Positions 1-64,000 are shown, counted from the stretch's first letter. The stretch: DNA of 64,000 bases from a virus (IMGVR_UViG_3300047160_035177:209-64208); one strand, 5' to 3'. The notes: generated by a model not told the origin, from the letters alone. Numbers and translations are program-made.

Positions 1-204
1 CTCATCGGGCGTGTAGGCATCTACACCACTTGAAAAAACGTGTGCGAAGCCGCGTTCACCACCATCGCCGTCAGTGCCGTGTATCGTGGTGGAATAATCG
101 ATCCTAAGAACGCGCCCGAGACAAACAAATGCCTCGGGCCAAACGACACCGTTGATCTCGGGGCAATCGAGTAGCTTGCCGGGGATTTCATCTATGAGGC
201 GCAC
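1..204 (-). CDS. 5' part of a putative virion protein running off position 1 (MRLIDEIPGK...LGRVLRIDY...GFAHVFSSGVDAYTPDE)
   Basis: Own translation: GTG at 204 overlapping the upstream stop, 68 open codons ending exactly at base 1. Confidence 0.7.
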   Translation of the reverse strand, partial: MRLIDEIPGKLLDCPEINGVVWPEAFVCLGRVLRIDYSTTIHGTDGDGGERGFAHVFSSGVDAYTPDE

Positions 205-569
205 TTACAGCTATTCCAGGTTGTTCCCTGCGGACAACGAGGCGGGTAAGGCGGAGTTGTAGTTGGGGTGCAGCAACCACCGCCGCCCGGCGCAAAACTT
301 GTGTATCCGAACGGACAAACAGAAAAACCCGACTTTATTCCTGTTTCCGATGCTTCAGAAGCAACCGCGCGCCGCTGCACTGCAGATCTTGATGCTGGTT
401 TAGTTGTGCCTACGACGCACCGTTGACTGATGTAATCCCAATAGTAGCCGGGTGGGCAGCCGTGCCAAGTGTTGTAAGGGGTAAGCACAGCGCCTTGACC
501 GTATTCGGGCACGAAGCCCATTCCGTGGTCAACGTAGGAAACACCGCACTGATCAACCATTCGTCGCAT
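192..569 (-). CDS. Cys-rich putative virion protein with CPxG(Y/T) repeats
   Basis: GCPPGYYW, CPFGY, CPQGTTW; coupled to neighbours. Confidence 0.7.
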   Translation of the reverse strand: MRRMVDQCGVSYVDHGMGFVPEYGQGAVLTPYNTWHGCPPGYYWDYISQRCVVGTTKPASRSAVQRRAVASEASETGIKSGFSVCPFGYTSFAPGGGGCCTPTTTPPYPPRCPQGTTWNSCKCAS

Positions 570-1000
570 CAGATTTTCCTTCCCGCGGTAGTAAACGCGC
601 TTTTGAAAACGTAGTTGGAAACGATGCCGGCGATCACAGAAACGAGGATGTTGATCACCACGGCTTCGGAGAAAGTGAAATCGCCGAGACCGGACGGGCT
701 AGATGTTGCTCCAATTCCATCAACGGCAGGGGCGAAGAGCATTCCCAGACCTGGACGCGTACGCCCACGCGAGGCGGGGAGACTAGCCCTGACAACTTGG
801 CCCACGGCAACTTCGCTGAAACCTACAGGTTGGGCATCTTGGGGGAGCGGGCAGAGGGACATCCCGATATCGATCATCCCACCGACACCGGGCTGCGTCG
901 CAGGTTTGCAGAGTGTGGGATCGGCCATGAGCGGACGTTGCCGCCCATCTTGGTAGACGGCGAACTGACGCCGATTCCAATCCCACACTGAGTAATTCAT
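569..1000 (-). CDS. Tail-anchored membrane protein with GLG/GIG motifs
   Basis: PGLGM, DGIGA, SGLGD; C-terminal hydrophobic helix VVINILVSVIAGIV. Confidence 0.75.
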   Translation of the reverse strand: MNYSVWDWNRRQFAVYQDGRQRPLMADPTLCKPATQPGVGGMIDIGMSLCPLPQDAQPVGFSEVAVGQVVRASLPASRGRTRPGLGMLFAPAVDGIGATSSPSGLGDFTFSEAVVINILVSVIAGIVSNYVFKSAFTTAGRKI

Positions 1001-1227
1001 TCAAGATCCGAGAACGGCGGTAGCTCCGAGAAAGCCGCTCCTTGGGATTCTACCTGTTCGCGTGACAGCACAACAATCCGAACCTCGATCACCTGCCCAC
1101 AAGAATTCGTCGCCGCAACGTTGATGAACCGTGCACCACGGCCGAGCGCTTCAAGCTCGGCGCTCGTAAGTGCAACTTCAACGGGGCAAGCGTGATGGTT
1201 GTAGGCGGGCGCGGTCATTTTTGCCAA
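997..1227 (-). CDS. Hypothetical protein
   Basis: ORF coupled to downstream gene (ATGA overlap). Confidence 0.55.
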   Translation of the reverse strand: MAKMTAPAYNHHACPVEVALTSAELEALGRGARFINVAATNSCGQVIEVRIVVLSREQVESQGAAFSELPPFSDLE

Positions 1228-1313
1228 GGCGACGCGGAAGGCAGCGGACGTCCCAACTTTTGCTCTTCGAGAGCTTTCTGATCCGCTTCACGGCGGACCT
1301 TGTCGGTGAATGC

Positions 1314-1361
1314 TCAACCAAGACCAGTAGGAACAACGGGAACGGGAACGATGTGGATCAT
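1314..1361 (-). CDS. 15-codon mini-ORF MIHIVPVPVVPTGLG; frame stays open past the TGA to 1215
   Basis: ATG overlaps the stop of 1358..2578; ends exactly on a GLG motif. Confidence 0.3.
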   Translation of the reverse strand: MIHIVPVPVVPTGLG

Positions 1362-2578
1362 GATTTCCCCCGTGAAGCGACCGCGAGAAGCACGATACCA
1401 ACAACAATCCCGATAACGCCGAACGCGGTTGCGCTTGTGCTAGCTGTTTGCGGGCTGCTGGTCGTTGGAAGCGTAGTGAGCAACTTTGGATCAAATTCTT
1501 GCTGTGTGTCCATCCAGCGGGCACGCTCGGTGCCAGGAAGCGGCCACTGGCCGGTGCTCATCGCGATCTTCACCTGTGAAGGCGAGAGATTGATCCACTG
1601 GCCTTGGACCGCAGCGTTTATGAGGGCGTTGGTAGCCAAGCCCACCGCGAGAGAAGCGAGAAGATTCCCACCGGTGCCGAGCGTCCAAAGAGACGTCCAG
1701 GCGGTACCAACGGAAGCAGCGGGGCCCGCGTTGGGATTCACATAGACCTGCAGAACGGGGCCTTCAAGGCGCCGATCGACACTCGCTAGAATTCCCGTGG
1801 GACCAACCTGAGCCGCGGTCGCTGTTAGAACGTCGTACTTGTGGCCCCACTCTACAGCGGTCGACTGCGTTGGCTGGGATCCACAGATGATGCGATCTGT
1901 GAAAGGTCCAACGGCGCGGGTTTGATCTACGCCTCTGGTGCTAGACCAAGAAGACGAATCGGAGGCAAGCCACATCGCCGCCGTCTGCAGGATGGGAAGC
2001 GTCTTCTGATACTGCGCAGGCAGACGAGCGGTCCACGAAGCTACGATCCCTTGCGACTGTTGTAGCTCGGGCGATTCACACTTGGTGGATCCGTCAGGGT
2101 TGCGGAGCGTCAGCGTTCCCGTGGAGCTGCGCACGAAGCCCTGATCGATTGGGGTCGGTGTCTCAGTGCAAGCCGCGAAGGGAGCTTGAATCGATGGGTC
2201 GTTCGCACGAAGCTTGTGCGATTCGTCGATCATCGTGGCCCACGACTTCGACGGGTGGTAAACGCCGGGCTCGACCACTTCGGTAGCGGCAACGGTCGGC
2301 ACCGCGAAACCTTGGCTGTAGCCAGTCCAGATCGCTTGGCAGCGACCGAGCTTATCGACCACTGACTGCGGAGTCGGGAAGTAATCGATGTTGCTGTTCA
2401 GATCGGCAGCGAAAACAGTTCCGCCGTTGGGAAATGCAGCTGGTAGATCAGCTGCTGCCCATGTTCGGCACGGCTGCGAGCTGGACGAGAAGATCCCACC
2501 ACCGGAGACAACGCCGCAGTTGCCTACCTCACGGTAGCGCTTGTCGTCAGTCTGGCCAAGTGATCGAACGGATAGCAT
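1358..2578 (-). CDS. Large tail-anchored putative virion membrane protein
   Basis: N-terminus MLSVRSLGQ; C-terminal TM AFGVIGIVVGIVLLAV followed by basic residues. Confidence 0.8.
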   Translation of the reverse strand: MLSVRSLGQTDDKRYREVGNCGVVSGGGIFSSSSQPCRTWAAADLPAAFPNGGTVFAADLNSNIDYFPTPQSVVDKLGRCQAIWTGYSQGFAVPTVAATEVVEPGVYHPSKSWATMIDESHKLRANDPSIQAPFAACTETPTPIDQGFVRSSTGTLTLRNPDGSTKCESPELQQSQGIVASWTARLPAQYQKTLPILQTAAMWLASDSSSWSSTRGVDQTRAVGPFTDRIICGSQPTQSTAVEWGHKYDVLTATAAQVGPTGILASVDRRLEGPVLQVYVNPNAGPAASVGTAWTSLWTLGTGGNLLASLAVGLATNALINAAVQGQWINLSPSQVKIAMSTGQWPLPGTERARWMDTQQEFDPKLLTTLPTTSSPQTASTSATAFGVIGIVVGIVLLAVASRGKS

Positions 2579-2579
2579 T

Positions 2580-2894
2580 TCACTTTTGAAGTTTGCGAAG
2601 CATGCTTTTGAAAGCGTCTATTTGCATGTTCAACTCGTCTTCGTCGTCTTCGCTTTTGGCTTTATCTAACTGCTTTTCCGCACCTTCGATCGCGTCTTCC
2701 ACTTCTGATTCAAGGCCGTCTTTGAGATCGTCGAACCATTCCGCATCGGTCATGTCGCTATGTGGACGACGTGAACCCAACGCGAGCGCGCCGGTCGAGC
2801 AGACAGCGTAGAGCATGGTGCTTTGGCCACCGTGCCACGCACAAGCGGCTTCGACTTCATCGCCATCAAATTCGATTTCATACTTTGGCATCAA
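2580..2894 (-). CDS. Acidic hypothetical protein
   Basis: Intact ORF in operon. Confidence 0.65.
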   Translation of the reverse strand: MMPKYEIEFDGDEVEAACAWHGGQSTMLYAVCSTGALALGSRRPHSDMTDAEWFDDLKDGLESEVEDAIEGAEKQLDKAKSEDDEDELNMQIDAFKSMLRKLQK

Positions 2895-3058
2895 TTTTTC
2901 CTCGATCGAGATGCGATAACGGCAACGATGCCGATCAGAGCTGCGGCGATTCCAACCTTGGTGATCGTTGGTAGCGTCGAAGCAGTGGAAGTCGAAGAAG
3001 CTTGGGGTGCTTCCTTAACTTCGGTAACTGTGGCGGCACCGAGTGGGATCTTGAGCAT
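2891..3058 (-). CDS. Small tail-anchored membrane protein (MLKIPLGA...)
   Basis: Start reassigned to the ATG in a TAATG overlap at 3058; PLGA motif; C-terminal TM plus SRSRKN. Confidence 0.7.
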   Translation of the reverse strand: MLKIPLGAATVTEVKEAPQASSTSTASTLPTITKVGIAAALIGIVAVIASRSRKN

Positions 3059-3531
3059 TAGCGTTTCAGCAATAGGAGTAGAAGAACCGCGCCACCACCG
3101 AGAAGCAGTAAGGTTTGAGGCGTGATCGAGCTTGGAACTTGGTAGCCCGGGTAACCTGGATACATGCCAGGATAACCGGGAACATTCGGGAGAACCCCAG
3201 CGCCGAAGCTGGCAAGGATGCCGCAAGCACCGCCCGAGTAGCTTTCCCAAGAAGGACCGAGACGGAGAGCTAGAATCCGTCGCGTCTCATCGTTCCAAGT
3301 ACCGGTGACGGAAGCGGCCGTGAGTTGTCCTTGACCCTGAAGGTAAAACTGGATCGCGCGGATGCAGTAATCGCTCGACATCTCTGCCGCGGTCTTCTTG
3401 TCGCAGCGCTGGCAGCCCGAACCTGAAGGATCGAGAGTGATCTTGTAGTCGGTTGGATTCGGGCAGACGAGGGGCGCAGGGTAGTACCCAGTCGGGCAAT
3501 TCGGCGATGCCTGTCCAAGTGCAGAGCGCAT
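3058..3531 (-). CDS. Cys-rich tail-anchored protein with a possible peptidoglycan-binding-like motif
   Basis: MRSALGQ; AIQFYLQGQGQ...VTGTWNDETRRIL resembles a PG-binding helix pair; C-terminal TM. Confidence 0.7.
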   Translation of the reverse strand: MRSALGQASPNCPTGYYPAPLVCPNPTDYKITLDPSGSGCQRCDKKTAAEMSSDYCIRAIQFYLQGQGQLTAASVTGTWNDETRRILALRLGPSWESYSGGACGILASFGAGVLPNVPGYPGMYPGYPGYQVPSSITPQTLLLLGGGAVLLLLLLKR

Positions 3532-4589
3532 TAGCCGGCAGATTTCTTCATGATACCTAGAGCAAGAAGAAGGACCGCAGCGCCGATCGCGATCTTGACA
3601 CCGGTAGAGAAACCTACGTTGGCTTGGCTGGTATCAACTGGCGTTCCGGGCGCGGGCGCGGGCGTTGTTGCGGTTGGCGTAGGCGCCAACGTGGTGGGAA
3701 CGCTTGGGACTACGCAGCACGTGTACTGACCGCGGGCCTCGAGCGTGTACGGTGGTCCGCACGGAATCGGATTCTCGCCGGGTAGGAAGCAATTAGCCCC
3801 ACGAACGCACTTCACGCAGCGGGTGCGAGGATCGACCGCGAGATACTCGCCCGCAGGGCAAGTTGACGGCCCTTGATCGGGAGTTGACCAACCAGGTGCG
3901 CAAAGCGGATTGCAGATCTCGCAACCAGATCCGCTAGGATCTGCAGACCAACCGTAGCCAGGAATACAGGTAATGTGGCTACCGGTGGGTGGTTGCTGAT
4001 AACCCGGCGAACACGGGATCGGTGCAGGAGGGGGAGACGTTGGCGCAGGTAACGTAACTACCGTGGGTGTGAGAGTCACCGCTGGTGCTGGCGTCTTTTC
4101 GACAAGATCCGTCCAGACCATACCGGGTGAGTAAACGCCTGGTGAAACTAGAACTAGACCGCCGTCAGGGGTTGCAACGAGAAGTCCAGCCGATCGCAAA
4201 TCTTGATTTTGGCAGTTACAAGTTCTACCGGCCACGAAACCGCTGTTTGGGGTACAACCGGGTGGATCAAAGAGCGCCGGAGTCTTTGTTCCGCCTCCGA
4301 TGTACCAACCAACCGACGAACTACCTCCAACTTCAGTAACCGGAACTTGGGTGCCGCGGAACAGCGAGTCGATCTGATCAAAAGTCAGATTCGTGTCGCT
4401 GCCATAACGGCCACGTGCTATTTGGTTCTGTGTAGCGCCAACGGGATTGTAATTGCAGTTCCCACCAGGAACGATGCTGTATCGAGATCCCCCAGCCTGA
4501 ACACCTTTGGGCTGGTACTGTTGCTTCGCCTGCCCGAGCCCACGATTTAGGTACGCGAGAATGCTGTCTCGCATAGTTGGTTGAAACAT
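3531..4589 (-). CDS. Cys/Pro/Thr-rich tail-anchored virion protein
   Basis: RGLGQ; CxPGY and CxxC repeats; PT-rich stalk; C-terminal TM. Confidence 0.8.
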   Translation of the reverse strand: MFQPTMRDSILAYLNRGLGQAKQQYQPKGVQAGGSRYSIVPGGNCNYNPVGATQNQIARGRYGSDTNLTFDQIDSLFRGTQVPVTEVGGSSSVGWYIGGGTKTPALFDPPGCTPNSGFVAGRTCNCQNQDLRSAGLLVATPDGGLVLVSPGVYSPGMVWTDLVEKTPAPAVTLTPTVVTLPAPTSPPPAPIPCSPGYQQPPTGSHITCIPGYGWSADPSGSGCEICNPLCAPGWSTPDQGPSTCPAGEYLAVDPRTRCVKCVRGANCFLPGENPIPCGPPYTLEARGQYTCCVVPSVPTTLAPTPTATTPAPAPGTPVDTSQANVGFSTGVKIAIGAAVLLLALGIMKKSAG

Positions 4590-5545
4590 TACTTTTTCCC
4601 CAAGAAGTAGATGAGGCCTAGAACGACCGCGGCGCCGATACCAACCTTAGCGCCGGTCGAGAGATTCGACGTCAACGTTGAAGGTGGCGTGATCGTCGCG
4701 GGCCCCGGCGTTGGCGCTGCCGTTGGCGTTGGTGCCAAAGTCGTAGGCGTCGCGCCCGGCGTTGTAGTAACAGACGGCGGCGCTGCTTGGCCCGGTGGGA
4801 TGGGCGCGCACACAACGCAGTCGGGATACTGTGGGTGATGCACCGACTGCCAACCTTGCTGACACGTCTGCGGGCCATGCACGTACGGACGTGGGCAACC
4901 GCCGATCGCGCAGCCAACGCAGCCCGTGTCTTCCTGCACCGTGAATGTGTAGCCAGGCGGGCAACCACCGAACACCCAGCCCATCGGCGGCTTCGCATAG
5001 CCAGACGGGCAGGGCTGCGCGTTGTCGCGTAGGCACGTGTTGCAGCCGTCTGGCGACAAAATCACTTTCGGGTGATCGGCCGTGCACTGTTGCTGCCAAG
5101 TGAATGGCGGCATGCAGATGGGCGGTGGGTTGCCTGGTCCAAAGCCTGCGGGCGGCATGTTTCCCCCTGGAGGCGGAGCGCCCGGTGCGGGTGCTCCTGG
5201 TGCGCCTCCGCCCGGTGGTCTTTGTATCGGTGGATTTTCGCTGATGTTGCCGGTCGGGCATTTATAGCAATTGGGATTCGATGGATCGGCTTGGATAGCT
5301 ACATCGCAGTAAGACGTTCCGCCGAAATCGTGCCAATACGACTTTGAGAAGTAGGCGCCTTGGCAGGTAGCCGTTACACACGTGTAGCAAGTATCGTCTG
5401 CCCACTTTGGTTGCTGACCGGGAGGGCAAATGTAGGTATTCGGCTGCTTGCCCGAATTGGGATAGTCAGGCGGGCAGGATGCACCAAGACCCGCTAGCGC
5501 ACGCGCGACGTCTGATCGAATCGTTGACTGCGCTCGCTGCCTCAT
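4589..5545 (-). CDS. Cys/Pro/Thr-rich tail-anchored virion protein, likely paralog of 3531..4589
   Basis: Start set at ATGA overlap 5545; AGLGASC; CPxGY repeats; shared TTLAPTPT and STG(A/V)K(V/I)(G/A)IGAAV anchor. Confidence 0.8.
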   Translation of the reverse strand: MRQRAQSTIRSDVARALAGLGASCPPDYPNSGKQPNTYICPPGQQPKWADDTCYTCVTATCQGAYFSKSYWHDFGGTSYCDVAIQADPSNPNCYKCPTGNISENPPIQRPPGGGAPGAPAPGAPPPGGNMPPAGFGPGNPPPICMPPFTWQQQCTADHPKVILSPDGCNTCLRDNAQPCPSGYAKPPMGWVFGGCPPGYTFTVQEDTGCVGCAIGGCPRPYVHGPQTCQQGWQSVHHPQYPDCVVCAPIPPGQAAPPSVTTTPGATPTTLAPTPTAAPTPGPATITPPSTLTSNLSTGAKVGIGAAVVLGLIYFLGKK

Positions 5546-6024
5546 GACATCTCCAACGTGGGTTGAACCGGCCGCGTCCGCCGCAAGATGAGCCAAACGA
5601 GCGTAGCACCAGCGATGAGACCACCTGTGATGATGAGCGGTTTGTATTGCTCCGTGAACGGAACTGCAGAAGGTGGGAGAGGCGAAAGCGACGGACCTAC
5701 AGACTGACCCTGCATCTGCTCGAACTGTGTTCGCCAGTCAGCAAGTTTCGATCGGTATTCAAGCGTCTTCTCGTACGTCCCGTAAAAGAGGCGGGCAGTC
5801 CAATCTTGGTGGTCGCTGTAAAACTGCTTCCACTCCTGCCTCCAACGAGTCCACGCGTTGACCCACAGCGTGTTGGTTCCGGCTCCGGTGAACTGTTGAG
5901 TAATACGGATCGCAAGCTCATCTACAGCCTTGTCGACCGCGTTCATCTCATCAAGCATCTGCCCGGGCGTGACAACGATCGCGCCGAGCCCGGATGCGTA
6001 CTGTGCGGAAGCAACGCGCAGCAT
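5542..6024 (-). CDS. Helical, Trp-rich tail-anchored membrane protein
   Basis: MLRVASAQYASGLGA; WTRWRQEWKQF; C-terminal TM. Confidence 0.75.
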   Translation of the reverse strand: MLRVASAQYASGLGAIVVTPGQMLDEMNAVDKAVDELAIRITQQFTGAGTNTLWVNAWTRWRQEWKQFYSDHQDWTARLFYGTYEKTLEYRSKLADWRTQFEQMQGQSVGPSLSPLPPSAVPFTEQYKPLIITGGLIAGATLVWLILRRTRPVQPTLEMS

Positions 6025-6027
6025 CGA

Positions 6028-6486
6028 TCAATCCTGGTGATCGGCGCATTCGCCGGTTTCGCAAGCCTCGCAAGCTTCGGATGCTTCGTAGGCGTCTTCT
6101 TCTGCTTCCTCCGCGTCGTTCGCTTCGGGGTGGTCTTCTAGATAGCGCTTTACCTCGGCCATGAGGCGGGAACGGGAGCGCCGGGCTCGACGCTCACGAA
6201 GCGCAGTCTTACGTCCGTCTTTCGTTTTGGGCGAGACGTAGCGTTTCCAGAACCAGTAACCGCCAGCGAGAAGAGCGGCCGCCAACGCGAGCTTGGTCCA
6301 AGAAGATGACGATCCCTGCGTTGGAGGCGGAGATGGTTGAGGCTGCTGTTGCCCCAACGGGGAAAGTTGTGGGAGCTGGTTCGGAATCGCGATCAGACCT
6401 TGCGGCGTCTGCACCGCGGTGTAGCCGAGAGGCTGGCCTTGTGGGCCAAGAAGTTGGCCGTCAGGCCCGATCAAAATCTGATTCAC
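6028..6486 (-). CDS. Single-pass membrane protein with basic then acidic C-terminal tail
   Basis: PLGY and PLGQ; TM LALAAALLAGGYWFW; RERRARRSRSR then E/D-rich end. Confidence 0.7.
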   Translation of the reverse strand: MNQILIGPDGQLLGPQGQPLGYTAVQTPQGLIAIPNQLPQLSPLGQQQPQPSPPPTQGSSSSWTKLALAAALLAGGYWFWKRYVSPKTKDGRKTALRERRARRSRSRLMAEVKRYLEDHPEANDAEEAEEDAYEASEACEACETGECADHQD

Positions 6487-6489
6487 GGA

Positions 6490-6927
6490 TCACTCCTCTT
6501 CATCGGGCGGAGGCGACGCTTTGGGCGCTGAGGGTGCTGCTGCTTTCGGCCGTGAAAGCACGATCGCGAGCGTGACAGCACCAAGCGCGACCGCGCCGAT
6601 CACCCAAGGATTCTGGTACCAAGCTTGCGCCGGCGCCGGAATGTTCGGCGGCATCGTTGACGGCATGTTCTTGCAGATGCAGTCAGCGATCAGTTGTGGG
6701 CCACCAACGGCCGCGATCGTTGCGTACCAGGGAGCTTGCGCGGGCGTCCCTGGTGCAACGCTCGGCGTCAACGCCTGCACGATCGCAGCGCTCGCTGCAG
6801 CGCGAACTGCAGGGTTGCACCCGACCTTGGACACGACATCCTTAAGGACCGGGATGTACTGCGTCGGGATGATCGAGCAGTAGTCGAACTGCCCTAGCGC
6901 TGTAGTCGGGCGGAGCATCCGACTCAA
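6490..6927 (-). CDS. Tail-anchored membrane protein
   Basis: MLRPTTALGQ (ATG at 6918 may be the true start); TM WVIGAVALGAVTLAIVL. Confidence 0.75.
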   Translation of the reverse strand: MSRMLRPTTALGQFDYCSIIPTQYIPVLKDVVSKVGCNPAVRAAASAAIVQALTPSVAPGTPAQAPWYATIAAVGGPQLIADCICKNMPSTMPPNIPAPAQAWYQNPWVIGAVALGAVTLAIVLSRPKAAAPSAPKASPPPDEEE

Positions 6928-6964
6928 GACGCTAACACGTGCGCGGCGTTACAAGCAATTCGAG

Positions 6965-7255
6965 CTAGAGCGCGCCCGCCTTTTTTACCTTGAAAGTGCG
7001 ATCATCCGCGGCGCGTTTCTTCTCGGTTGCCCACGATCCGTTGGCAACGATCGGCGAGAAGGGAAGATTACCGACCCAGTTTTGCTCACGTTCGCGACAC
7101 TCTTTGTCGTCGCAAACGGTAGATGATCGGTACGCGTTGTGAATTCGTTTCTGCGCGTGCTTGCCGCAACGTGAGCAACGCGCGAAAGAGCTAGCGGGCA
7201 CCTCTCGTACGTTGCCGTAGCGCGTAGGCGGATTCTTTTTATGTTCAACTCTCAT
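6965..7255 (-). CDS. Small Zn-finger-like protein
   Basis: Start at ATGA overlap; CSRC...CDDKEC. Confidence 0.55.
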   Translation of the reverse strand: MRVEHKKNPPTRYGNVREVPASSFARCSRCGKHAQKRIHNAYRSSTVCDDKECREREQNWVGNLPFSPIVANGSWATEKKRAADDRTFKVKKAGAL

Positions 7256-8738: not shown

Positions 8739-8748
8739 GCCGAAGATT

Positions 8749-13069: not shown

Positions 13070-13120
13070 GGGACCCTTCTTTCTTCCCTCACAGGGCCTT
13101 CTTATAAGACGATATACGGG

Positions 13121-13400: not shown

Positions 13401-13413
13401 TCTGTGAAAGAAG

Positions 13414-56161: not shown

Positions 56162-56164
56162 GAT

Positions 56165-56955: not shown

Positions 56956-57051
56956 GGAGTTGAGCGTACCTCGATCGCGTCCCGGGGTCTACCAGGAGCC
57001 TGCTTGTATAACTGGTTTGACAGGCGGCCGCGCGCGCGCGAGGATCGGCGC

Positions 57052-57567
57052 ATGAAACACATAATTTTCGTTTTTCTGCTTCTCGGGTGCGATGGCGATC
57101 CGATCCTTGCTGGTGATGCTGGCGGCAGCGGAAGCGACGGCGGAGGCGGAGAGATCGATCCCAACCAGATCGGTCACGGTGACGCGGGCGTGCAGGCGGA
57201 AACAAATTCTGATGCAGTCGTGGATCCTGATGCGGTCCCGGATATTCTAGAAGCGCCTTCGGGTCCGTGTGATCCCTACAAGCAGACGGGATGCGGTCCT
57301 GGAGAGGCCTGCGACCGCACGTGCGATGGCTTCAAGTGCCGCAAGGCGGGCATCAACGGATCAGGCGGAATGTGTATGGTGATCGGAGATGGATACTGCG
57401 CCGCCGGGTTAACGTGCGTCAAAAGCGAACAGACCAACGGGAGTTATAAGTACTTCTGCGAGAAGTTGTGCGGCAGTGTCAACGACTGCGCTGGGCGCCC
57501 GTGCAACCCCGTGTGGTGCGATTGGAATCGCACGGGCTCTACCGTTACCGGAATTTGCGGTCTCTAG
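57052..57567 (+). CDS. Cys-rich lipoprotein of myxobacterial style
   Basis: Lipobox LLGC; DAG linkers; CDPYKQTGCGPGEAC; antisense to flanking operon. Confidence 0.75.
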   Translation: MKHIIFVFLLLGCDGDPILAGDAGGSGSDGGGGEIDPNQIGHGDAGVQAETNSDAVVDPDAVPDILEAPSGPCDPYKQTGCGPGEACDRTCDGFKCRKAGINGSGGMCMVIGDGYCAAGLTCVKSEQTNGSYKYFCEKLCGSVNDCAGRPCNPVWCDWNRTGSTVTGICGL

Positions 57568-58196
57568 AGACCACAGAGAATCGGGAACTGGCTCAAATTG
57601 AGCGGAAGCAGGTTGGAGCCGCCGCAGTCGACAACGGTGCGGCCGCTGACCCTGCGAATCGAAATTTGAAAATTCGAGATCGTCGCGCCGCAGCCGAGAA
57701 GCTCGAAGCCCGGCGTGCAACTGGTCACTTCCGCGTAGATGAAACCGGTGCAGGTGACGACAACATCGGTTCCAGGAGCGCTGCACTCAGTGATTTGGTA
57801 CGCGGTGGTCGTATCGTCGCAGCTGGGAAAGAACGCGGCGAGAACGAAGGAGCCCGTTGGAAGTGTAGCTTCCATCCGAACCTCGATCTCATAAGTGCCT
57901 GGAGCGAGATCGGGAACGCAGACGATACCGTCGAGAGGACCCGGATTGATGAATCCAGGCTCCGGCGAAAGCAGGTTAGTTGCTCCGCTGAAAGCGAACG
58001 GGCCGCCGGCCGAGAAGATGAAGTTATTCGCGCCCTGGGCTTCCTCAGTGCGGAAGTAGTTGCAGCACGCTGAGATGTCGCAGGGCGTGGTGGACGTCGC
58101 GCCCGCAAGCACGGCCGCGCAAGGCGCAGTGCCGATAGCCGGGTTGAGCACAAACTGCGGCTCATTGCTGGGGCATTCGCAATCGTTCGTGCTCAT
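57564..58196 (-). CDS. Cys-rich beta-sandwich protein (vertex/penton candidate)
   Basis: TYEIEVRMEA, VVVTCTGFIY, FQISIRR strands. Confidence 0.55.
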   Translation of the reverse strand: MSTNDCECPSNEPQFVLNPAIGTAPCAAVLAGATSTTPCDISACCNYFRTEEAQGANNFIFSAGGPFAFSGATNLLSPEPGFINPGPLDGIVCVPDLAPGTYEIEVRMEATLPTGSFVLAAFFPSCDDTTTAYQITECSAPGTDVVVTCTGFIYAEVTSCTPGFELLGCGATISNFQISIRRVSGRTVVDCGGSNLLPLNLSQFPILCGL

Positions 58197-58540
58197 CGTC
58201 GTGTGCTCCTACCTAGAAGGAACGCGATTACCGGTACGGATAGTATCATCAGCGCCGTGAGGCCCTGATTCTCCTTCACCCATGCGATCGTTTGCAGGGC
58301 AGGATTGATATCTGAAAGCTTGTGCTGCGTCGGTGTGGTCGTTCCGAAGGAAGGAAGCGACGCGAACGGAGGCGCGACGATGATTCGTCGCACTAGCTGG
58401 AAAGTCGCAGGCGCGCCGGGATCGTTGGTGCTCAGCGCCGTTCCCGCAGCGGTCAGGCCCGCATCGACAAGGGGATCGATGTAGCCCGGCTGCGTCGTCG
58501 GGGCGAACTGGCCAAGTTGGCGCGTCTGGATCGAGAGCAT
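58193..58540 (-). CDS. Tail-anchored membrane protein
   Basis: MLSIQTRQLGQ; C-terminal TM. Confidence 0.7.
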   Translation of the reverse strand: MLSIQTRQLGQFAPTTQPGYIDPLVDAGLTAAGTALSTNDPGAPATFQLVRRIIVAPPFASLPSFGTTTPTQHKLSDINPALQTIAWVKENQGLTALMILSVPVIAFLLGRSTRR

Positions 58541-58924
58541 TTAGCTTCGCTTTCGCTTTCGCTTCTGCTTGTTCACGGTCGCGGCCGCGATCGCCTTTGC
58601 GTCGGGAAGCGAGTAGCCCTGCGCTAGAGCGCTCTTCTTGATCGCCTCGTACTGACGGTTTTCTTTTTTCGTCGCGCCGGGAAGATGCTTGCCACCGGGA
58701 TTCGAACGGCGCTTGCGCTCGTGGGGCTTGCGCTCTTGCTTGATCGCTTTGTCGAATTCGCCGCCGTCTTTGGTCAGAAGATAGTAGCCACGGGGATCAC
58801 GGCAGATCTCCTCACCGCCACCAAGGCCAACGCACTGCCCGACTTTGGGCATCTTGTAGCCATCGACCTGCAGGACCGTCGCGACCTTGCGCGCCTCGGC
58901 CTTGGTGAGATTCCAGAGACTCAT
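58541..58924 (-). CDS. Basic putative DNA-binding protein
   Basis: RQYEAIKKS...AKAIAAATVNK resembles a ChaB-like/plasmid-stabilisation-annotated motif (recall); KRKRKRS end. Confidence 0.6.
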   Translation of the reverse strand: MSLWNLTKAEARKVATVLQVDGYKMPKVGQCVGLGGGEEICRDPRGYYLLTKDGGEFDKAIKQERKPHERKRRSNPGGKHLPGATKKENRQYEAIKKSALAQGYSLPDAKAIAAATVNKQKRKRKRS

Positions 58925-58931
58925 GCTTACC

Positions 58932-59147
58932 TTAGCGAGAGCTGATTAGAGCTGAGATCGCCCAGAGACCACCAAGAAGGAGCGCGATAGGAAGCCAAGC
59001 CGCGCCAGTAGCAGCCTGACCAAGTTCGCCACAACCACAGTTGCTTCCACCAGAGAGCGCGGGAGGCTGAGGTGATGCACCGGCGCTCTGCCAACCGAGG
59101 CCGTGGTTGACGAGGAGAGTGCCGTTCTGATCGTAAGCCATTCGCAT
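58932..59147 (-). CDS. Small tail-anchored membrane protein
   Basis: HGLGW, ELGQ; C-terminal TM. Confidence 0.7.
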   Translation of the reverse strand: MRMAYDQNGTLLVNHGLGWQSAGASPQPPALSGGSNCGCGELGQAATGAAWLPIALLLGGLWAISALISSR

Positions 59148-59158
59148 GGAGATCTCCC

Positions 59159-60028
59159 TTAACCGCCAGCTTGGTAGGACTTGTTGTCCAACGCTTCGGC
59201 GAGAAGTTGTTGGTTAACCATGTAACCGCGGACACGAACGCCAACGATGGTTGGGAATCCCGGAAACGGCGAGTGAAACACCTTGTAGCCAGCGCCAACG
59301 CTGTTCTTCATGACGTCGGTGTAGGGCGGATGCGAGAGAGCGGCAATCTCAGGCGCGTTGACGATTTCATCGCCGCTTGCGGTATCGCCTTGCGTGAGCG
59401 TCTGCTCACCAAGGGCATGCACGCCGTTGTCTGCCCGGAGGAAGAAAGCGACTTGGCCGACGAGAGAGAATGGATCTACTGCGATGAAGGCGCCGGGAAG
59501 ACCGGGGTTATTGAGCGCGGCGAAACTCGAAAAGCTCGTGACGATAAGAGACTGAGTATCGGGAACGCGGATGTCGCCGGGAAGCTTATCGCCGAGGTTC
59601 TGCGTTTCGTTGAGATCCAAGGGAATGGAATGCACACCAAGCGTGCGATCGAAGTTGACCCAGCCCGAGCGGATGATTGGAACGATGTCGGTGTTCCGAA
59701 GAACGTTGCTCGCGAGAAAATCGAAAACCTGTTGGGAACACGAGTAGGCGGCCGCGGTCAGGGGCGCTGCGCACCCCGCGAATTGCGCAACGACGCCTTC
59801 CTGACCGAGACCGTCGAGAGAGCTTAGCGAGATCGGCTGTAGCTCGCGAGCGAGCATCGATGCGGCGTTGGCGTCAACACCGATGCCCTTGGCGAATGGC
59901 GGAAGCTCGTGCTTCGCCCCAGAGAGTACGGGCGCTGGCGCGGGCAATCTTTTCTTCGGGGCACCGTTAGGCGCCCCGTCGCCTACCCGGAACTTGCGAT
60001 CCGGGGGCGAATCGGTGGGGCGGCCCAC
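59159..60028 (-). CDS. Capsid protein candidate (possible single jelly-roll after a propeptide)
   Basis: Disordered N-terminus ending DGLGQ; beta-rich remainder ending VGVRVRGYMV. Confidence 0.5.
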   Translation of the reverse strand: MGRPTDSPPDRKFRVGDGAPNGAPKKRLPAPAPVLSGAKHELPPFAKGIGVDANAASMLARELQPISLSSLDGLGQEGVVAQFAGCAAPLTAAAYSCSQQVFDFLASNVLRNTDIVPIIRSGWVNFDRTLGVHSIPLDLNETQNLGDKLPGDIRVPDTQSLIVTSFSSFAALNNPGLPGAFIAVDPFSLVGQVAFFLRADNGVHALGEQTLTQGDTASGDEIVNAPEIAALSHPPYTDVMKNSVGAGYKVFHSPFPGFPTIVGVRVRGYMVNQQLLAEALDNKSYQAGG

Positions 60029-60032
60029 GGGT

Positions 60033-61085
60033 TTACCCCACGTTCGGCGCGGTCATTGCTCCCGGGAGAGCCGGAATGCCGCAACCGCCAGCACCGCAAG
60101 TGATGAGCCGGAAGCCCGCGAAGACGAACGAGACGACCACATTGAATCGGCTAGGCCGCGTCAGCGTGAGCGCTACTTGGAGAATCTTCTGGCAGTCGAG
60201 GTAAGCCCCAACACCGATGCAGTCGGGAACCTCGTTGGTGATATCCCAGTTGACCTGGGGCGACCACAGATCGAGCGGGAACTGGGTGTTTTGCCAACCG
60301 CAGCCGTTGACGTTCACCTCGGTTACACCGGAGAGACACTCCGGGTGATCCAAGGTGAGCAAGGGAACGGTCGCTTGGAAGTTGCTGGTGCTGCCGCCGG
60401 GGCACTCCAGGCTCGCGCAAAGTGTGTTCTGCCCTGCGGAGAGAAGCTTGCAGTCCAAGACCGAAATCGGAATCGACATCCCACGGACGTCGAGGCCTGG
60501 GATGAGCTGCGATCCGAAGTCGATCGAGAAAGTAGCTTCCTCGTCGCTGCTCGTGAAGGAGTTGCTACCGCAATTCGGGTTGCACGAGGGGATATCGATC
60601 GCCGAGAACGGGAAGTTCTGGGCGCGGGTGTCCTTCGTATCGATGAAGGCGAAGGCCATAAGGTCGGTGATGAACACCGGGCCATCGGAGGTTGAGAGAA
60701 CCTCTCCAACAACGCGCTCGCCTTCGGTGTCGCGATCGTAGGGAATGTCGACCGTGAGGAACCACGGGAGCACGCGGCCCTGGATCACAGCCTGCGCAAC
60801 AGAGCCAAGCCCGGGCTCGCCAAGCGCCGAAACGCCCGACATGCCCATGGCCGAGTTGGGCCGCGAGCGGACGAGATCTTGAATCTGCGACTCACCGGAG
60901 ATGAGCCGCTGTTGCATGCCGGCAAGTTGCTCGGCCATGCGCTGCTCGAGGCTTCCAAGATTCCGACGCAGATCGTACCAGCGAACAAGCTGATCATCGC
61001 CGCCCTGCGCCTGGCCCATAGGGGTAAGCTGGGGGGGATTATAAGGGGGGAGCTGGCGAGAGTGAGGCGGGCGATTGATCGGCAT
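60033..61085 (-). CDS. Capsid protein candidate (possible single jelly-roll after a propeptide)
   Basis: AAGGAGG RBS; coiled coil then ALGEPGLGS; FLTVDI, FITDL, VSFVFAGFRL strands. Confidence 0.5.
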   Translation of the reverse strand: MPINRPPHSRQLPPYNPPQLTPMGQAQGGDDQLVRWYDLRRNLGSLEQRMAEQLAGMQQRLISGESQIQDLVRSRPNSAMGMSGVSALGEPGLGSVAQAVIQGRVLPWFLTVDIPYDRDTEGERVVGEVLSTSDGPVFITDLMAFAFIDTKDTRAQNFPFSAIDIPSCNPNCGSNSFTSSDEEATFSIDFGSQLIPGLDVRGMSIPISVLDCKLLSAGQNTLCASLECPGGSTSNFQATVPLLTLDHPECLSGVTEVNVNGCGWQNTQFPLDLWSPQVNWDITNEVPDCIGVGAYLDCQKILQVALTLTRPSRFNVVVSFVFAGFRLITCGAGGCGIPALPGAMTAPNVG

Positions 61086-61160
61086 CGAAGTCTCCTCCTT
61101 GGAGGGCATCCCTTTCGGGCCTCTGAGCTTATATGCGGGCTCAGGATCCGCAAAACTGAA

Positions 61161-61250
61161 CGCGGCGCCGGAAGAACTACCTCACCGGCAGGGACCGGCG
61201 CCGCGGAATATAAATCGGGGCTACGTTAGCCGGCTACTAGCCCCAATTTA
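61161..61250. terminator. Two inverted repeats downstream of the major capsid candidate
   Basis: CGCGGCGCCGG (61161-71)/CCGGCGCCGCG (61195-205); TAAAT-GGGGCTA/TAGCCCC-ATTTA (61211-50). Confidence 0.55.
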
Positions 61251-61256
61251 GTGGAG

Positions 61257-62057
61257 CTAGCAGAGGGTAACGCAGGCGAGACCGTCGATCGCGAACGAAA
61301 CCAGCTCGATGATCCCGTGGATATCGCCGAGCTTGGAATCAGGGCAGTTGCCGGCGGTCGTGCAAAGCGCGTCGCCACCCACGATCGCCGCGGCGTCGAG
61401 AGCATTGAAGCAGTTGTTGTCCGCGTCGGTGATCTCGGCGAAGAACGTAAAACCGGTCACCGAAGAGGTGTTGCCGATCGCCAGCGGGTTGACGATCCGG
61501 AACTTCGGCTGATCCGGCAGGCCGTTCGTCACGTTGACGAACAATGGGCAGGTGCAGTTGATGTCGGGGGAGCCTGGGATCGACGACTCCTGCGCGCAGG
61601 TGGCCGAAGCCATCGTCGCGAAGGCGCCCCCGCCCTCCGGCAGCTGCGAGAAGGCCTCGCAGATCTCATCAACGCCCCGAACCTGCAGGGTGATGAAGCC
61701 GGTCTCGATGATGAGGCTGGCCAGGAAGAGAACGACCGCGCCGTCAAACGCATTGAACCCGAGAGCGAGATCGCCCGCGTGATTCGTGTGCGTCGGAGTC
61801 ACGCTGGTGATGAACACCGGCACCGACAGGAAGTCCGGCACGAACACGGTACCGTCGCTTCCACCGAAGAAGATTCCCCGGAAGAAGTCGGTGGAGCAGC
61901 CACCAACCCCGGTGGGGTTCTGGAAGAGCTGCGAGCGGGCATTCACGTCCGGGAAGCAGCAAAACGAGCCGCAAAGCCCGTTAAGAATGCTGTCCTGGAT
62001 GCGGATGTACTTGGTGTGGTTGAGGTTCGTGATCTGGGATGCGCAAACTGCTGGCAT
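61257..62057 (-). CDS. Major capsid protein candidate (single jelly-roll?)
   Basis: Strong TTGGAGG RBS before MPAVC; flanked by hairpins; beta-rich; LFQNPTG...THTN motif like non-tailed virus capsid proteins I recall. Confidence 0.5.
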   Translation of the reverse strand: MPAVCASQITNLNHTKYIRIQDSILNGLCGSFCCFPDVNARSQLFQNPTGVGGCSTDFFRGIFFGGSDGTVFVPDFLSVPVFITSVTPTHTNHAGDLALGFNAFDGAVVLFLASLIIETGFITLQVRGVDEICEAFSQLPEGGGAFATMASATCAQESSIPGSPDINCTCPLFVNVTNGLPDQPKFRIVNPLAIGNTSSVTGFTFFAEITDADNNCFNALDAAAIVGGDALCTTAGNCPDSKLGDIHGIIELVSFAIDGLACVTLC

Positions 62058-62129
62058 TGTTCTAACCTCCAACGAAGCGCGGCTTTTGACCGCTGGGTCC
62101 GTTAAAGTAAAACCCCTTCACTTTTGAAA

Positions 62130-62171
62130 CAGGCGCCGGGGTGTTAAAGGGGCAATAACCCCCGGCGCCTG
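62130..62171 (-). terminator. Hairpin between core protein and capsid genes
   Basis: CAGGCGCCGGGG/CCCCGGCGCCTG 12-bp stem followed by TTT on the minus strand. Confidence 0.6.
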
Positions 62172-62183
62172 ATCAAGAGTCAG

Positions 62184-63740
62184 TTACCCGATGCCGACCG
62201 AATCCAGCGTGCCTTGGAGCTGCTGAGCGCGCTGAATGAGCAGGCTCGCCACGAACGGGTCGTTAGCGGCAGCGCCTGCCTTCTTGAGGGCCATGTCACC
62301 AGCGACGCCGCGAGCCCCAGCGGCAGCCGGCGCCACCGCGGTTCCCGAAGCGGTCACGCCCGGAGCCGGCATGGTGCCCGGGAAGTAAGGCGACGGAAGT
62401 GGGCATGGGCTGGTGCTGGTCGGCCATGCACACCCGTACTGGCAAGTGCCAAGACCGGCTCCGTGCCCACAAGTGCCTCCAAGGCCTGCGGTGCCAGTCG
62501 GCGCCAACGCACCCGGAGCGGGTGGCGTGACGGCCGGAGGCAACGCAGAGCCCGGGAAGTACGGCGAGGGCAACGGACACGGCGAAGTGCTGGTCGGCCA
62601 AGCGCAGCCGTATTGGCAGGTACCAAGCCCTGCGCCATGGTCGCAGAGTCCGCCGAGCCCGGCCATGGGCGATCCGTAGATCGCGTTGCCGAGAACGCCA
62701 CCCTTACCGGGGCCGAGCCCGACCATCGGCAGCACGATGCCGAGAACGTCTTCGACAAAGTGCAGCGCCGCACCGAGAGCGATCAGCTCCCGATTCGAGC
62801 GCCAAGCCGAAGGCGTCCAGTTCTGTCCGCCAGCCCACCACAGAGCGCCCGTGGTGATCGCCGAGACGACCGGAGGAGCCCACTTCGAGGCGCTGATCGA
62901 CGGAGCGGCCTTGGCAAGCTGGGTAGTACCCCAGCTCGACAGAGCGCGTGCGCCGATGAGACCAATGGAGGCGATTGCTGCCTTCTTGGTCAGATCGACG
63001 AAACGACCCGTCGGGTTGGCGCTCCGCATCTCATACGACCGTCGGTGCCGTCGCCGGCGCTCTGAAGGCATGTACGAGGAGTACGGACGGCCAAGAGCCG
63101 TAAACTCGCGGCTCCGCCGATGACGCCGCCTGCGGCGCTCGCCTACAGCCTCACGGGACCGTCGCCGCGACCGGCGCCGCCGACGCTCGCCCATGAAGAA
63201 CGGGAGAAACTCGCGCGACCGACGCCGCGCCCGTCGACGCGACCGTCGCCGCCTCCGGCGCTCACCGAGCCCGAAGAAACTCGCCAGAGTTTCCCGGCTT
63301 CGCCGCCTTCGGCGCCGCTCGCCCGTTCGCCGAGACCGACGCCTTCGGCGCCGCTCACCAGCGCGCATCGTCTCGCGCGACCGGCGCCGACGTCGACGCT
63401 CGGAAGCAACAACTTCACGCGACCGCCGACGCCGCTTGCGCGACCGCCTCCGGCGACGCTCCGAAAGATCACCTGCGACGGCTTCTCGCGACCGGCGCCG
63501 ACGACGCCGACGGCGCTCTGCTAGCGCCTGAAATGCTGCCATGGCCATGCGATTCTCCTTTGGTCGATAACGACGACGTTCACCGAGGGTTATCGGTCCA
63601 TCTGGCGGATAAACCAGCGTGGCCGTTGTGACGCCTCCTATCACCGCGTCTGCGGGTAGCGCGTCACGATAACGCCGTCTGCGTTTACGCACGTTGATCA
63701 CGTTACGTGGATGGGGGAAAGCGTCAAGAGAAAATTTCAA
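62184..63740 (-). CDS. Protamine-like Arg-repeat core protein fused to hydrophobic and Cys-repeat regions
   Basis: About 10 xERRRRR(R)SR blocks; hydrophobic helices; duplicated GLGTCQYGCAWPTSTSPCPLPSPYFPG. Start uncertain: TTG 63740, GTG 63692, or ATG 63548 with AAGGAG RBS. Confidence 0.8.
   Translation of the reverse strand: MKFSLDAFPHPRNVINVRKRRRRYRDALPADAVIGGVTTATLVYPPDGPITLGERRRYRPKENRMAMAAFQALAERRRRRRRRSREAVAGDLSERRRRRSRKRRRRSREVVASERRRRRRSRETMRAGERRRRRRSRRTGERRRRRRSRETLASFFGLGERRRRRRSRRRARRRSREFLPFFMGERRRRRSRRRSREAVGERRRRRHRRSREFTALGRPYSSYMPSERRRRHRRSYEMRSANPTGRFVDLTKKAAIASIGLIGARALSSWGTTQLAKAAPSISASKWAPPVVSAITTGALWWAGGQNWTPSAWRSNRELIALGAALHFVEDVLGIVLPMVGLGPGKGGVLGNAIYGSPMAGLGGLCDHGAGLGTCQYGCAWPTSTSPCPLPSPYFPGSALPPAVTPPAPGALAPTGTAGLGGTCGHGAGLGTCQYGCAWPTSTSPCPLPSPYFPGTMPAPGVTASGTAVAPAAAGARGVAGDMALKKAGAAANDPFVASLLIQRAQQLQGTLDSVGIG
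62381..62665 (-). repeat. Duplicated Cys/Pro-rich coding repeat of about 37 aa
   Basis: Two nearly identical peptides encoded with many synonymous DNA differences. Confidence 0.85.
63028..63521 (-). repeat. Poly-Arg coding repeat array
   Basis: Repeated (G/S/A)ERRRRRRSRE units. Confidence 0.9.
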
Positions 63741-63811
63741 CGATTACTGATGCTTACATTGAGAATCGAGTCGTGTACGTTGAATCGCTAGCAATTATCG
63801 ACGTTTGGGGA

Positions 63812-64000
63812 TCATCCCGTGATCATTCCCGTGGAATCCAAGCCCAGAAATCCGCCTTGGATCACTGCAACGGGATGGCCGTCCATCGAAACAGCGAGGA
63901 GTTTTTTGCCTTCGGGATCCCACGCCAAGAGACACGGATCGATGGCGCAGATCTCGTCTACGTCTTCGGAGATCGCGTCATCGACATCTTTCCGTTCGTA
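63812..64000 (-). CDS. 3' part of a protein entering from the right edge (YERKDVDD...LAWDPEGKKL...QGGFLGLDSTGMITG*)
   Basis: Own translation: 62 codons plus TGA, first codon starts exactly at 64000. Confidence 0.7.
   Translation of the reverse strand, partial: YERKDVDDAISEDVDEICAIDPCLLAWDPEGKKLLAVSMDGHPVAVIQGGFLGLDSTGMITG

Follow-up and report, generated by a model that had tools for sequence, protein, structure and literature searches.

A closed 64-kb virus genome with predicted single jelly-roll proteins, an arginine-rich membrane protein and no recognisable packaging machinery

The virus record IMGVR_UViG_3300047160_035177 is 64,208 bp long, and the DNA analysed here, referred to as the window, is the 64,000-nucleotide stretch that covers its bases 209-64208. 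The first 97 bases of the record are an exact copy of its last 97 bases, giving a circular map with about 64,111 bp of unique sequence. The window falls short of the record by 208 bases, of which 97 belong to the terminal repeat and 111 are unique, so that no hidden gene can lie outside it. In the circularised sequence a minus-strand open reading frame (ORF) of about 160 aa runs across the junction without interruption, and a homologue of this ORF (33% identity, E 3e-21) occurs in an independent metagenomic contig of 119,388 bp (Logan SRR9179561 contig 2186; hereafter the 119-kb relative), where it sits between homologues of the gene at 569-1000 and of the arginine-rich gene described below. 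The junction ORF and the synteny conserved in an independent contig show that closure of the circle is no assembly accident and that the genome, of about 64.1 kb, is complete. Its G+C content is 54-63%, and neither tRNA genes (ARAGORN) nor known RNA families (Rfam) were found in it. CheckV puts the completeness of this closed record with direct terminal repeats at only 58%, and marker-based virus tools seem to be blind to the lineage.

The putative morphogenesis operon is a block of co-oriented, tightly packed minus-strand genes that extends from 12342 down to position 1 and then, across the junction, from 64000 to 55536, about 21 kb in all (Table 1). A promoter with -35 and -10 elements directly abuts the start codon of its first gene at 12342. 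The products include two neighbouring candidate capsid proteins, an arginine-rich membrane protein, a candidate maturation protease and, by hydropathy and ORF reading, about 12 proteins with a transmembrane (TM) anchor. The preliminary description of this DNA had recognised a junction-spanning block with a Cys protease, an arginine-rich core protein and more than ten TM-anchored proteins; the block and these components are real, and it is the boundary, placed at about 11 kb, that has to be moved to 12342.

Table 1. Features of the window and the evidence on which each assignment is based (. = strand not assigned).
Feature	Position	Strand	Basis and remarks
Proximal part of the operon	1..12342	-	Packed ORFs; promoter; colinear with the 119-kb relative (L009/L013/L014)
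Distal part of the operon	55536..64000	-	Arg-rich, capsid-like and small membrane proteins, CDGSH, thioredoxin; junction ORF and synteny
Capsid candidate 1, 350 aa	60033..61085	-	Disordered Pro/Gln-rich N-terminus, one helix, GLG, predicted single jelly-roll core ~102-330
Capsid candidate 2, 289 aa	59159..60028	-	Basic disordered leader of ~90 aa, then predicted 8-stranded jelly-roll core
Cys-rich 266-aa protein, candidate further capsid or vertex protein	61257..62057	-	Directly upstream of the jelly-roll genes
Protamine-like membrane protein, 518 aa	62184..63740	-	Composition and sequence; no family match in any library
Transglutaminase-core (papain-like) Cys protease, candidate maturation protease	7252..7872	-	Pfam PF01841, E 3.8e-5
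Tail-anchored array	1358..6918	-	Proteins of 142, 160, 318, 347, 157, 55 and 406 aa; mostly Cys-rich
Candidate scaffold or size-determining protein, 684 aa	8910..10964	-	Coiled-coil matches only (tape-measure PHROG, SMC/Rad50 models)
Double helix-turn-helix DNA-binding protein	10957..11481	-	Head of operon; Pfam HTH_23, HTH_7, HTH_28; PHROG E 4e-9
Three conserved proteins	57564..58924	-	Cys-rich, beta-rich 210 aa; leader-plus-TM 115 aa; basic 127 aa
Redox cluster, end of operon	55536..56547	-	Leader-plus-TM 71 aa, CDGSH iron-sulfur protein, His-rich peptide, thioredoxin
Candidate replication origin	13074..13416	.	AT-rich, intergenic, adjoins DUF3987 gene; direct repeats (25-46 nt, 2-4 copies) and inverted copies
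Replication and recombination module	13414..23206	.	Pfam; DUF3987 on the minus strand
Sigma-70 family factor (r2 plus r4)	28521..29156	-	Pfam E 8e-16 and E 1e-9
SLT lytic transglycosylase	29244..29840	+	Pfam PF01464, E 1.8e-14
Host-recognition and lysis module	35546..41093	+	Three small holin-like TM proteins, collagen-repeat protein, two unknowns, 471-aa protein, GH25 muramidase
Tyrosine integrase	41839..42834	-	Pfam Phage_integrase, E 1.4e-21

The two capsid candidates are predicted by AlphaFold2, with low to moderate confidence, to be single jelly rolls. Structure prediction had been proposed for the structural ORFs at large; it was run on these two conserved neighbours, and it gave jelly rolls and not an HK97 fold. 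The model of the 350-aa protein, which was built on a 10-sequence alignment, shows one long helix, and its beta-barrel core spans residues 102-330 (pLDDT 60-85); in both proteins the modelled core consists of one barrel with 8-10 strands. For both candidates the structural matches with the best coverage are capsid proteins from viruses with an internal membrane, foremost the chains of Sulfolobus polyhedral virus 1 (SPV1), and their capsid matches comprise SPV1, SH1, P23-77, HHIV-2, PRD1 and PBCV-1. An exhaustive search with the 350-aa core scored a PBCV-1 capsid chain at 8.2, SH1 and SPV1 at 7.7 each (the latter over 135/178 residues), P23-77 VP16-VP17 at 6.9, HHIV-2 at 6.8, and HCIV-1 and PRD1 P3 at 6.7 each; capsid proteins of Faustovirus, ASFV, adenovirus and STIV are also on the lists, and double jelly-roll proteins match the core over one barrel only. 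With Foldseek, the best PDB match of the same model is P23-77 VP16-VP17 (E 3e-3), and the best BFVD matches are capsid proteins. Profile and sequence searches of the PDB sequences with the capsid family and with the 684-, 471- and 406-aa proteins returned coiled-coil noise or nothing. The 266-aa protein encoded next to this pair has no family match in PHROGs, Pfam or NCBIfam, and has homologues at the same position in three stretches from relatives (L001, L008 and L009; relatives are cited by such L numbers) at 30-42% identity. No paralogy was found by hhalign among the 266-, 350-, 289-, 210- and 115-aa proteins or among the Cys-rich proteins.

Upstream of these genes lies that of the protamine-like membrane protein. 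The N-terminal half of this 518-aa protein is 36% Arg and consists of about ten blocks of the form E-R(4-8)-SR, and it is followed by hydrophobic helices and then by two Cys/Trp/Pro repeats. A tblastn search detects the protein in relatives at E 5e-29. In L001 a protein of 514 aa, and in L009 one of 614 aa, share its architecture (31-38% R+K, a hydrophobic part and a Cys repeat) and its place in the gene order, which makes it conserved in three lineages. The candidate protease scores 24.4 bits against PF01841, for which the Pfam cut-off is 23, and is 59% identical to its homologue at L014:5506-6321, with Cys114, His146/147 and Asp163 invariant.

Ten proteins of the block share a short N-terminal leader with LG at its end and Q, A or W as the next residue, a body rich in Cys or in Pro/Thr, a C-terminal TM helix and terminal basic residues. 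Their leaders are MLSVRSLGQ, MLSIQTRQLGQ, MLRPTTALGQ, MRSALGQ, MLKIPLGA, ...NRGLGQ, ...LAGLGA, ...SGLGA, ...NHGLGW and MLAIRSLGQ. The motif is present in 13/31 proteins of the block as compared to 9/71 elsewhere in the genome (p = 0.0017), and it also opens unrelated-looking proteins of the relatives, for example MRYIKDRCGTTWADAGLGQ, MLYYRDQNGRSIADHGLGD and MIHRDNRRAIDFGLGQ. Taken together, these leaders are 5-20 residues long and end in (G/A)LG, with Q, A, D, H or W as the next residue; they are encoded on the minus strand at 569-7872, 56332-56547 and 58193-59147 of the window, and at L001:5327-9392 and L003:3373-6461. The protease itself starts with MLSLGH, and LG(E) also divides the Arg blocks of the protamine-like protein. 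The LG leader looks like a common cleavage or sorting signal.

At its distal end the operon closes with the redox cluster, in which zf-CDGSH (E 7e-13) and thioredoxin (E 1e-30) are recognised by Pfam, and the gene order of which is repeated in L012 and L008. The protamine-like protein, the Cys-rich membrane-anchored proteins and this redox system would also fit an enveloped or pleomorphic virus, or one with a membrane-wrapped rod nucleocapsid, in which the Arg-rich protein served as nucleocapsid protein and the jelly rolls were parts of the envelope or its spikes. We regard such an architecture as quite improbable: the best-covering fold matches are proteins of icosahedral shells, and two or three adjacent, conserved beta-barrel genes correspond to the gene-pair layout of single jelly-roll capsids. 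Between the CDGSH and thioredoxin genes (55949-56161, minus strand) lies a gene for a 70-aa peptide with repeated (A/S)GH(T/S)H, 43% identical to its counterpart in a relative, which might bind metal as a partner of the redox pair.

The genes that define other virion types were sought with Pfam on all ORFs of at least 200 aa, with PHROGs on 20 of those, with Pfam and PHROGs on 58 small ORFs, and with NCBIfam on the ten largest unknown proteins, and also by six-frame profile searches of the whole record with FtsK_SpoIIIE, Pox_A32, Terminase_6N, TerL_ATPase, Phage_capsid and Phage_portal. No large terminase subunit was found by any of these libraries on the ORFs, by the two six-frame terminase profiles or by Walker-A scans. 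No portal protein was detected by Pfam or PHROGs on the ORFs or by the six-frame Phage_portal search, all of which use sequence profiles. There was no profile match to an HK97 capsid on the ORFs or in six frames, a class of proteins that can escape profiles. Pox_A32 found nothing in six frames, there were no FtsK or A32 Pfam matches on the ORFs, and the FtsK_SpoIIIE search gave only an 11-bit P-loop echo inside the Sak4 gene. Strict and relaxed Walker-A scans of all six frames recovered, apart from chance matches, only the SNF2 helicase (14800-16284) and the AAA_24/Sak4 protein (17796-18605), and DUF3987 (13414-14766) has a deviant P-loop that is usual for its family. These results bear out the earlier statements that the genome has no recognisable terminase, portal, HK97 capsid or FtsK/A32 ATPase and that its only P-loop proteins are SNF2, Sak4 and DUF3987; a search beyond the window had also been proposed, and with the whole record covered no A32/FtsK or terminase came to light.

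Could the genome nonetheless belong to a hyper-divergent tailed phage (Caudoviricetes), with a terminase, portal and HK97 capsid that escape profiles and with jelly rolls that serve as fibre domains, decoration or cement? The fold matches do include jelly-roll proteins of cement, turret and fibre type from the tailed phages KHP40, Pam1, HFTV1 and phage 7-7-1, and the genome has collagen-like and receptor-binding-like fibre genes and a GH25 lysin. Of the three weak signals from the hallmark-gene searches, one lies in the 684-aa protein, the coiled coil of which matches SMC models as well as a tape-measure PHROG (E 3.5e-5), and another is a collagen-like match of 18 residues to tail-fibre PHROGs within 37548-38522. 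The replication genes are likewise of tailed-phage type, in that the set and order of domains (Sak4 - DUF669 - PolA - SNF2 - PD-(D/E)XK) is that of Caudoviricetes. In contrast, the PolA protein matches 563 of 50,697 GenBank phage records with an identity that nowhere exceeds 25%, DUF3987 has no match among phage records, the polymerase is split with dam between its parts, and there is no tailed-phage structural module. The best PolA matches are in Rhizobium, Streptomyces and Mycobacterium phages, and the earlier label of this module as SPO1-like finds no support. Terminases are normally detectable, yet Pfam, PHROGs, NCBIfam and the six-frame profiles (two terminase families, one for portals and one for HK97 capsids) found none in a genome that is complete and in which no ORF of at least 400 aa without a family match has a Walker A motif. 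There are four such family-less proteins (a coiled-coil, a TM-anchored, an Arg-rich and a 471-aa receptor-binding-like protein), and none of them is a plausible terminase. Moreover, head modules of tailed phages do not feature a protamine-like protein or membrane proteins with tail anchors by the dozen, and we hold this explanation to be very unlikely.

Relatives of the virus are very rare. For the family of the 350-aa protein, a search of 5.8 billion clustered proteins yielded 9 homologues, and one of 1.84 billion representatives yielded 10 clusters. Queries of IMG/VR with single proteins and with the capsid and protease alignments brought up no relative, no copy was found in 185,579 GTDB genomes, JGI metagenomes yielded one 2-kb fragment as the only match, and no virus of this kind was found in the literature searched. 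In every relative recovered, the order of the genes for the 266-, 350- and 289-aa proteins, and then for the 127-, 115- and 210-aa proteins, is kept. The 119-kb relative, of which about 48 kb was read (12.7-60.9 kb; L009, L012, L013 and L014), is colinear with the entire block of the window. Its order starts with the homologue of the 684-aa protein (32%) and continues with the protease (59%), SWIB, small proteins, duplicated Cys-rich tail-anchored proteins, an inserted DEAD/ResIII helicase gene, the junction ORF, the Arg-rich gene, an inserted TnpB gene, the homologues of the 266-, 350- and 289-aa proteins and, further on, CDGSH, thioredoxin, three unknowns and RadC. Precomputed Pfam annotations over the same 48 kb include no terminase, portal or FtsK. 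Given this colinearity, the module is a conserved unit of about 21-35 kb in genomes of quite unequal size.

Among other features of the 119-kb relative, the TnpB (IS605 OrfB) gene separates the Arg-rich gene from the capsid genes, the helicase within the structural block is 766 aa long, and the genes for a Cys-rich membrane protein and for the 210-aa protein are duplicated. Another relative, of 26 kb (L001/L005:10438-11271), has a gene for the anti-restriction protein ArdA and codes, downstream of its capsid module, for several paralogues that share an 'ITLNRAEG' motif at the N-terminus.

The integrase and ParB genes, ArdA in the 26-kb relative, the lack of packaging machinery and the low CheckV value would also suit a plasmid-like or integrative element, not a virus, that encodes cell-surface and membrane proteins. 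This seems to us scarcely credible, as Pfam searches of the ORFs and the Walker-A scan found no relaxase, type IV secretion system ATPase or coupling protein, whereas the genome codes for a lysis cassette, fibres, jelly rolls that resemble capsid proteins, a protease of maturation type and a dedicated replisome. Furthermore, the order of the 21-kb module is conserved across contigs of otherwise different content, and the search of the GTDB genomes found no copy.

A more serious alternative concerns the motor. A jelly-roll membrane virus might fill a membrane-lined procapsid by means of an ATPase that is not recognised, is recruited from among DUF3987, SNF2 and Sak4, or is an FtsK-like protein of the host, and the Arg-rich protein would then, like the core proteins of adenovirus, do no more than neutralise charge. 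Of the jelly-roll dsDNA viruses known to have an internal membrane, nearly all use an FtsK/HerA-type ATPase (PMC8328091). The three P-loop NTPases encoded here, the position of the DUF3987 gene directly upstream of the operon on the same strand, and the DEAD/ResIII helicase within the structural block of the 119-kb relative can be read in the same way. On the other hand, no FtsK, A32 or HerA signal appears in the six-frame searches, the three P-loop proteins sit in, and resemble parts of, a standard recombination and replication module, and nothing in the block of the window corresponds to the helicase found in the relative. We therefore consider a packaging motor of this kind unlikely.

With regard to known virus groups, several features recall the Portogloboviridae and the SPV1 virion (PMC8459092), namely circular dsDNA, two single jelly-roll shell proteins, VP4 and VP10 in SPV1 (here two predicted jelly rolls proposed for the shell), many predicted membrane proteins, a dedicated DNA-condensing protein (here proposed), glycosyltransferase and methyltransferase genes, and the lack of an identifiable packaging ATPase (here in six-frame searches for FtsK, A32, terminase and portal). 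The circular map, the Arg-rich membrane protein and the dozen TM proteins are also consistent with the nucleoprotein-in-lipid trait of that family. SPV1 differs in its hyperthermophilic archaeal host (Sulfolobales), its genome of about 20 kb, the absence of replication proteins and its non-lytic life style (PMC8459092), whereas the present genome has bacterial signals, a length of 64 kb and a full PolA replisome, and thus falls outside the family in host, size and gene content. Its putative condensing protein, unlike that of SPV1, is a protamine-like, membrane-anchored repeat protein without detectable likeness to solved structures, and it adds to the SPV1 repertoire a protease with leader peptides, a redox pair, a PolA replisome, an integrase and a lysis cassette. 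No sequence similarity to SPV1 was detected.

Members of the Helvetiavirae/Singelaviria (Sphaerolipoviridae and Matsushitaviridae, with P23-77, SH1, HHIV-2 and HCIV-1) have two single jelly-roll capsid proteins, which are encoded as neighbours and stand vertically in the shell, encode an A32/FtsK-like ATPase beside their capsid genes, have genomes of 16-31 kb and are without a protamine-like protein; neither the six-frame searches nor Pfam on the ORFs revealed such an ATPase here, the FtsK-HerA (A32-like) type that defines Bamfordvirae and Helvetiavirae. The Tectiviridae, Corticoviridae and Finnlakeviridae (PRD1, PM2 and FLiP) have double jelly rolls in place of the single-barrel-sized cores predicted here, genomes of 9-15 kb with protein-primed PolB or rolling-circle replication, and no Arg-rich core protein. 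FLiP is a bacterial virus without a packaging ATPase (PMC7654751). The host domain, genome size and replication genes all differ and homology is not detectable, so that by sequence comparison the genome belongs to neither Portogloboviridae nor the FLiP family.

Maturation of adenovirus depends on a papain-like Cys protease, on precursors with a short Gly-containing cleavage motif and on Arg-rich condensing precursor proteins. The Cys protease, short-motif precursors and Arg-rich protein of this genome resemble that system by analogy only, since adenain belongs to a different clan from the transglutaminase-core enzyme found here, the motif here is ...LG-Q/A with a bacterium as the host, and homology between the two systems was not detected.

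The reading that we prefer, and to which we assign a little better than an even chance, is that of a tailless jelly-roll, membrane-containing virus that condenses its genome independently of an ATPase. Its tailless and membrane-containing aspect, which the preliminary description had put forward, is supported, not proven, by the missing packaging, portal and HK97 genes, the jelly-roll predictions and the block rich in membrane proteins; encapsidation without an ATPase we infer. The genome would be that of a bacterial virus, probably temperate, from an undescribed lineage outside the tailed phages. Following the portoglobovirus logic of shell, lipid layer and nucleoprotein core, at least two single jelly-roll proteins would make up the outer shell. 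A patch of membrane modified by the virus would be the site at which the Arg-rich protein condenses the replicated circular genome, with the 36%-Arg half neutralising and compacting the DNA and the hydrophobic half embedded in the presumed lipid layer, and the shell would then close around the condensed DNA with no ATP-driven pumping into a preformed procapsid. The papain-like protease would remove the LG leaders and also cut at internal LG sites, and the thioredoxin and CDGSH pair would manage the many disulfides. Attachment would be through collagen-like and beta-helix-like fibres, the SLT enzyme may serve entry, and GH25 and the holin-like proteins would bring about exit.

Several points count against this picture. 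The structure models cover 2 of about 45 proteins of the block, both with modest confidence. Silence of profile searches is not absence, and HK97 or portal proteins can be too divergent for profiles. The replication module is typical of tailed phages in its make-up, as are the collagen-like and beta-helix fibre genes. In addition, one of the three P-loop proteins could moonlight in packaging, and the 119-kb relative does carry a DEAD/ResIII helicase inside its block.

A more far-reaching version holds that the genome and its few metagenomic relatives represent a new high-rank lineage, whose large tailless internal-membrane virions combine SPV1-like single jelly rolls with motor-free condensation by a membrane-tethered, protease-processed protamine-like polyprotein, and with LG leaders that are removed by a transglutaminase-fold protease. 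We advance it tentatively, its chances falling below even. To our knowledge, every bacterial dsDNA virus larger than about 20 kb is a tailed phage that pumps its DNA into a procapsid through a portal, and the portoglobovirus type of assembly is known only from two archaeal virus species. If the proposal is correct, a motor-free, membrane-bearing jelly-roll lineage of 64-119 kb in bacteria would break the tailed-only rule. Portoglobovirus-type assembly would then have a bacterial counterpart for the first time, and a bacterial virus would for the first time be seen to condense its genome in the manner of protamines. The lineage would also be relevant to how jelly-roll viruses arose, as a case in which single-barrel shells lack the ATPase by which Varidnaviria is defined. 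Both the protamine-like membrane protein and the combination of leaders with a protease would be biochemical novelties in themselves. Gene-based detection and completeness tools overlook such genomes, as the CheckV value and the lack of relatives in IMG/VR illustrate.

Each protein of the tail-anchored array starts with a short ...LG(Q/A) leader, continues as a stalk rich in Pro and Thr, and ends in a TM helix with basic residues behind it; homologues of the array occur in L013 and L014. The three conserved proteins downstream of the capsid candidates have homologues in L003, L005, L008 and L009, in the last of which they are duplicated. The helix-turn-helix protein at the head of the operon matched no small-subunit terminase family in Pfam or PHROGs. 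From its N-terminus onwards, the 684-aa protein is made up of an AT-hook-like stretch, a globular part, about 200 aa of coiled coil, a linker rich in Pro and a C-terminal domain. Its homologue in L014 is 714 aa long, with identity extending over 642 aa (tblastn); a homologue search with the protein itself returned only self, swamped by low-complexity words, and its ESM Atlas model was poor (pTM 0.22), rendering structure matches meaningless. Two plus-strand ORFs chosen by the gene caller (56174-56524 and 63120-63524) were dropped for overlapping minus-strand genes.

The replication and recombination module encodes DUF3987, the SNF2 helicase, a PD-(D/E)XK nuclease, Sak4/AAA_24, DUF669, a UDG plus 3'-5' exonuclease protein, a Dam methylase and a PolA polymerase-domain protein. 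The family A polymerase is split (19282-23206) into the UDG plus 3'-5' exonuclease protein and the polymerase-domain protein, and a complete, translationally coupled dam methylase gene lies between the two halves. The intergenic region beside DUF3987 is a likely replication origin by its composition and repeats; its iteron families include the 25-nt GGGTGTGAAATAAGCTTAATTACTA, with 2 copies and an inverted copy, and a 46-nt repeat in 2 copies.

Evidence for a bacterial host comes from the promoters and -10 boxes, the sigma-70 family factor and the peptidoglycan hydrolases (GH25, SLT), and also from Dam and ParB; the promoters, sigma factor and hydrolases speak against a eukaryotic or archaeal host. 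A sigma-70-type -10 box, often TAGAAT, ends 5-9 nt upstream of the start in 11/102 genes, against about 1 expected; such boxes are found at the starts at 7872, 8738, 12342, 29244, 46980, 53173 and others, and a Shine-Dalgarno sequence is missing in 62/102 genes. Boxes that abut starts imply leaderless mRNAs at operon starts and may be a hint to the host clade. The integrase and the ParB protein (49438-50544; ParB HTH E 8e-8) suggest a temperate or plasmid-like carrier state.

In the host-recognition and lysis module the collagen (E 1.4e-7) and GH25 (E 2e-27) assignments are by Pfam, and the 471-aa protein (39010-40425) has ESM features like those of phage Mtd_N and pectate-lyase fibre proteins (score 0.90), to be taken as a lead. 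Further genes with Pfam matches encode a nucleotidyl transferase, several GT2-type glycosyltransferases, two collagen-repeat proteins, SWIB/MDM2 and RadC. SWIB/MDM2 is a chromatin-associated domain that is uncommon in bacterial viruses; the protein that carries it here (35302-35556, plus strand; E 3e-24) has a counterpart at L014:6335-6736. A 311-aa minus-strand ORF at 44113-45048, which was skipped by the codon-usage gene caller and has no family match, has a hydrophobic, signal-like N-terminus and regularly spaced Cys residues, which suggests that its product is a secreted Cys-repeat protein.

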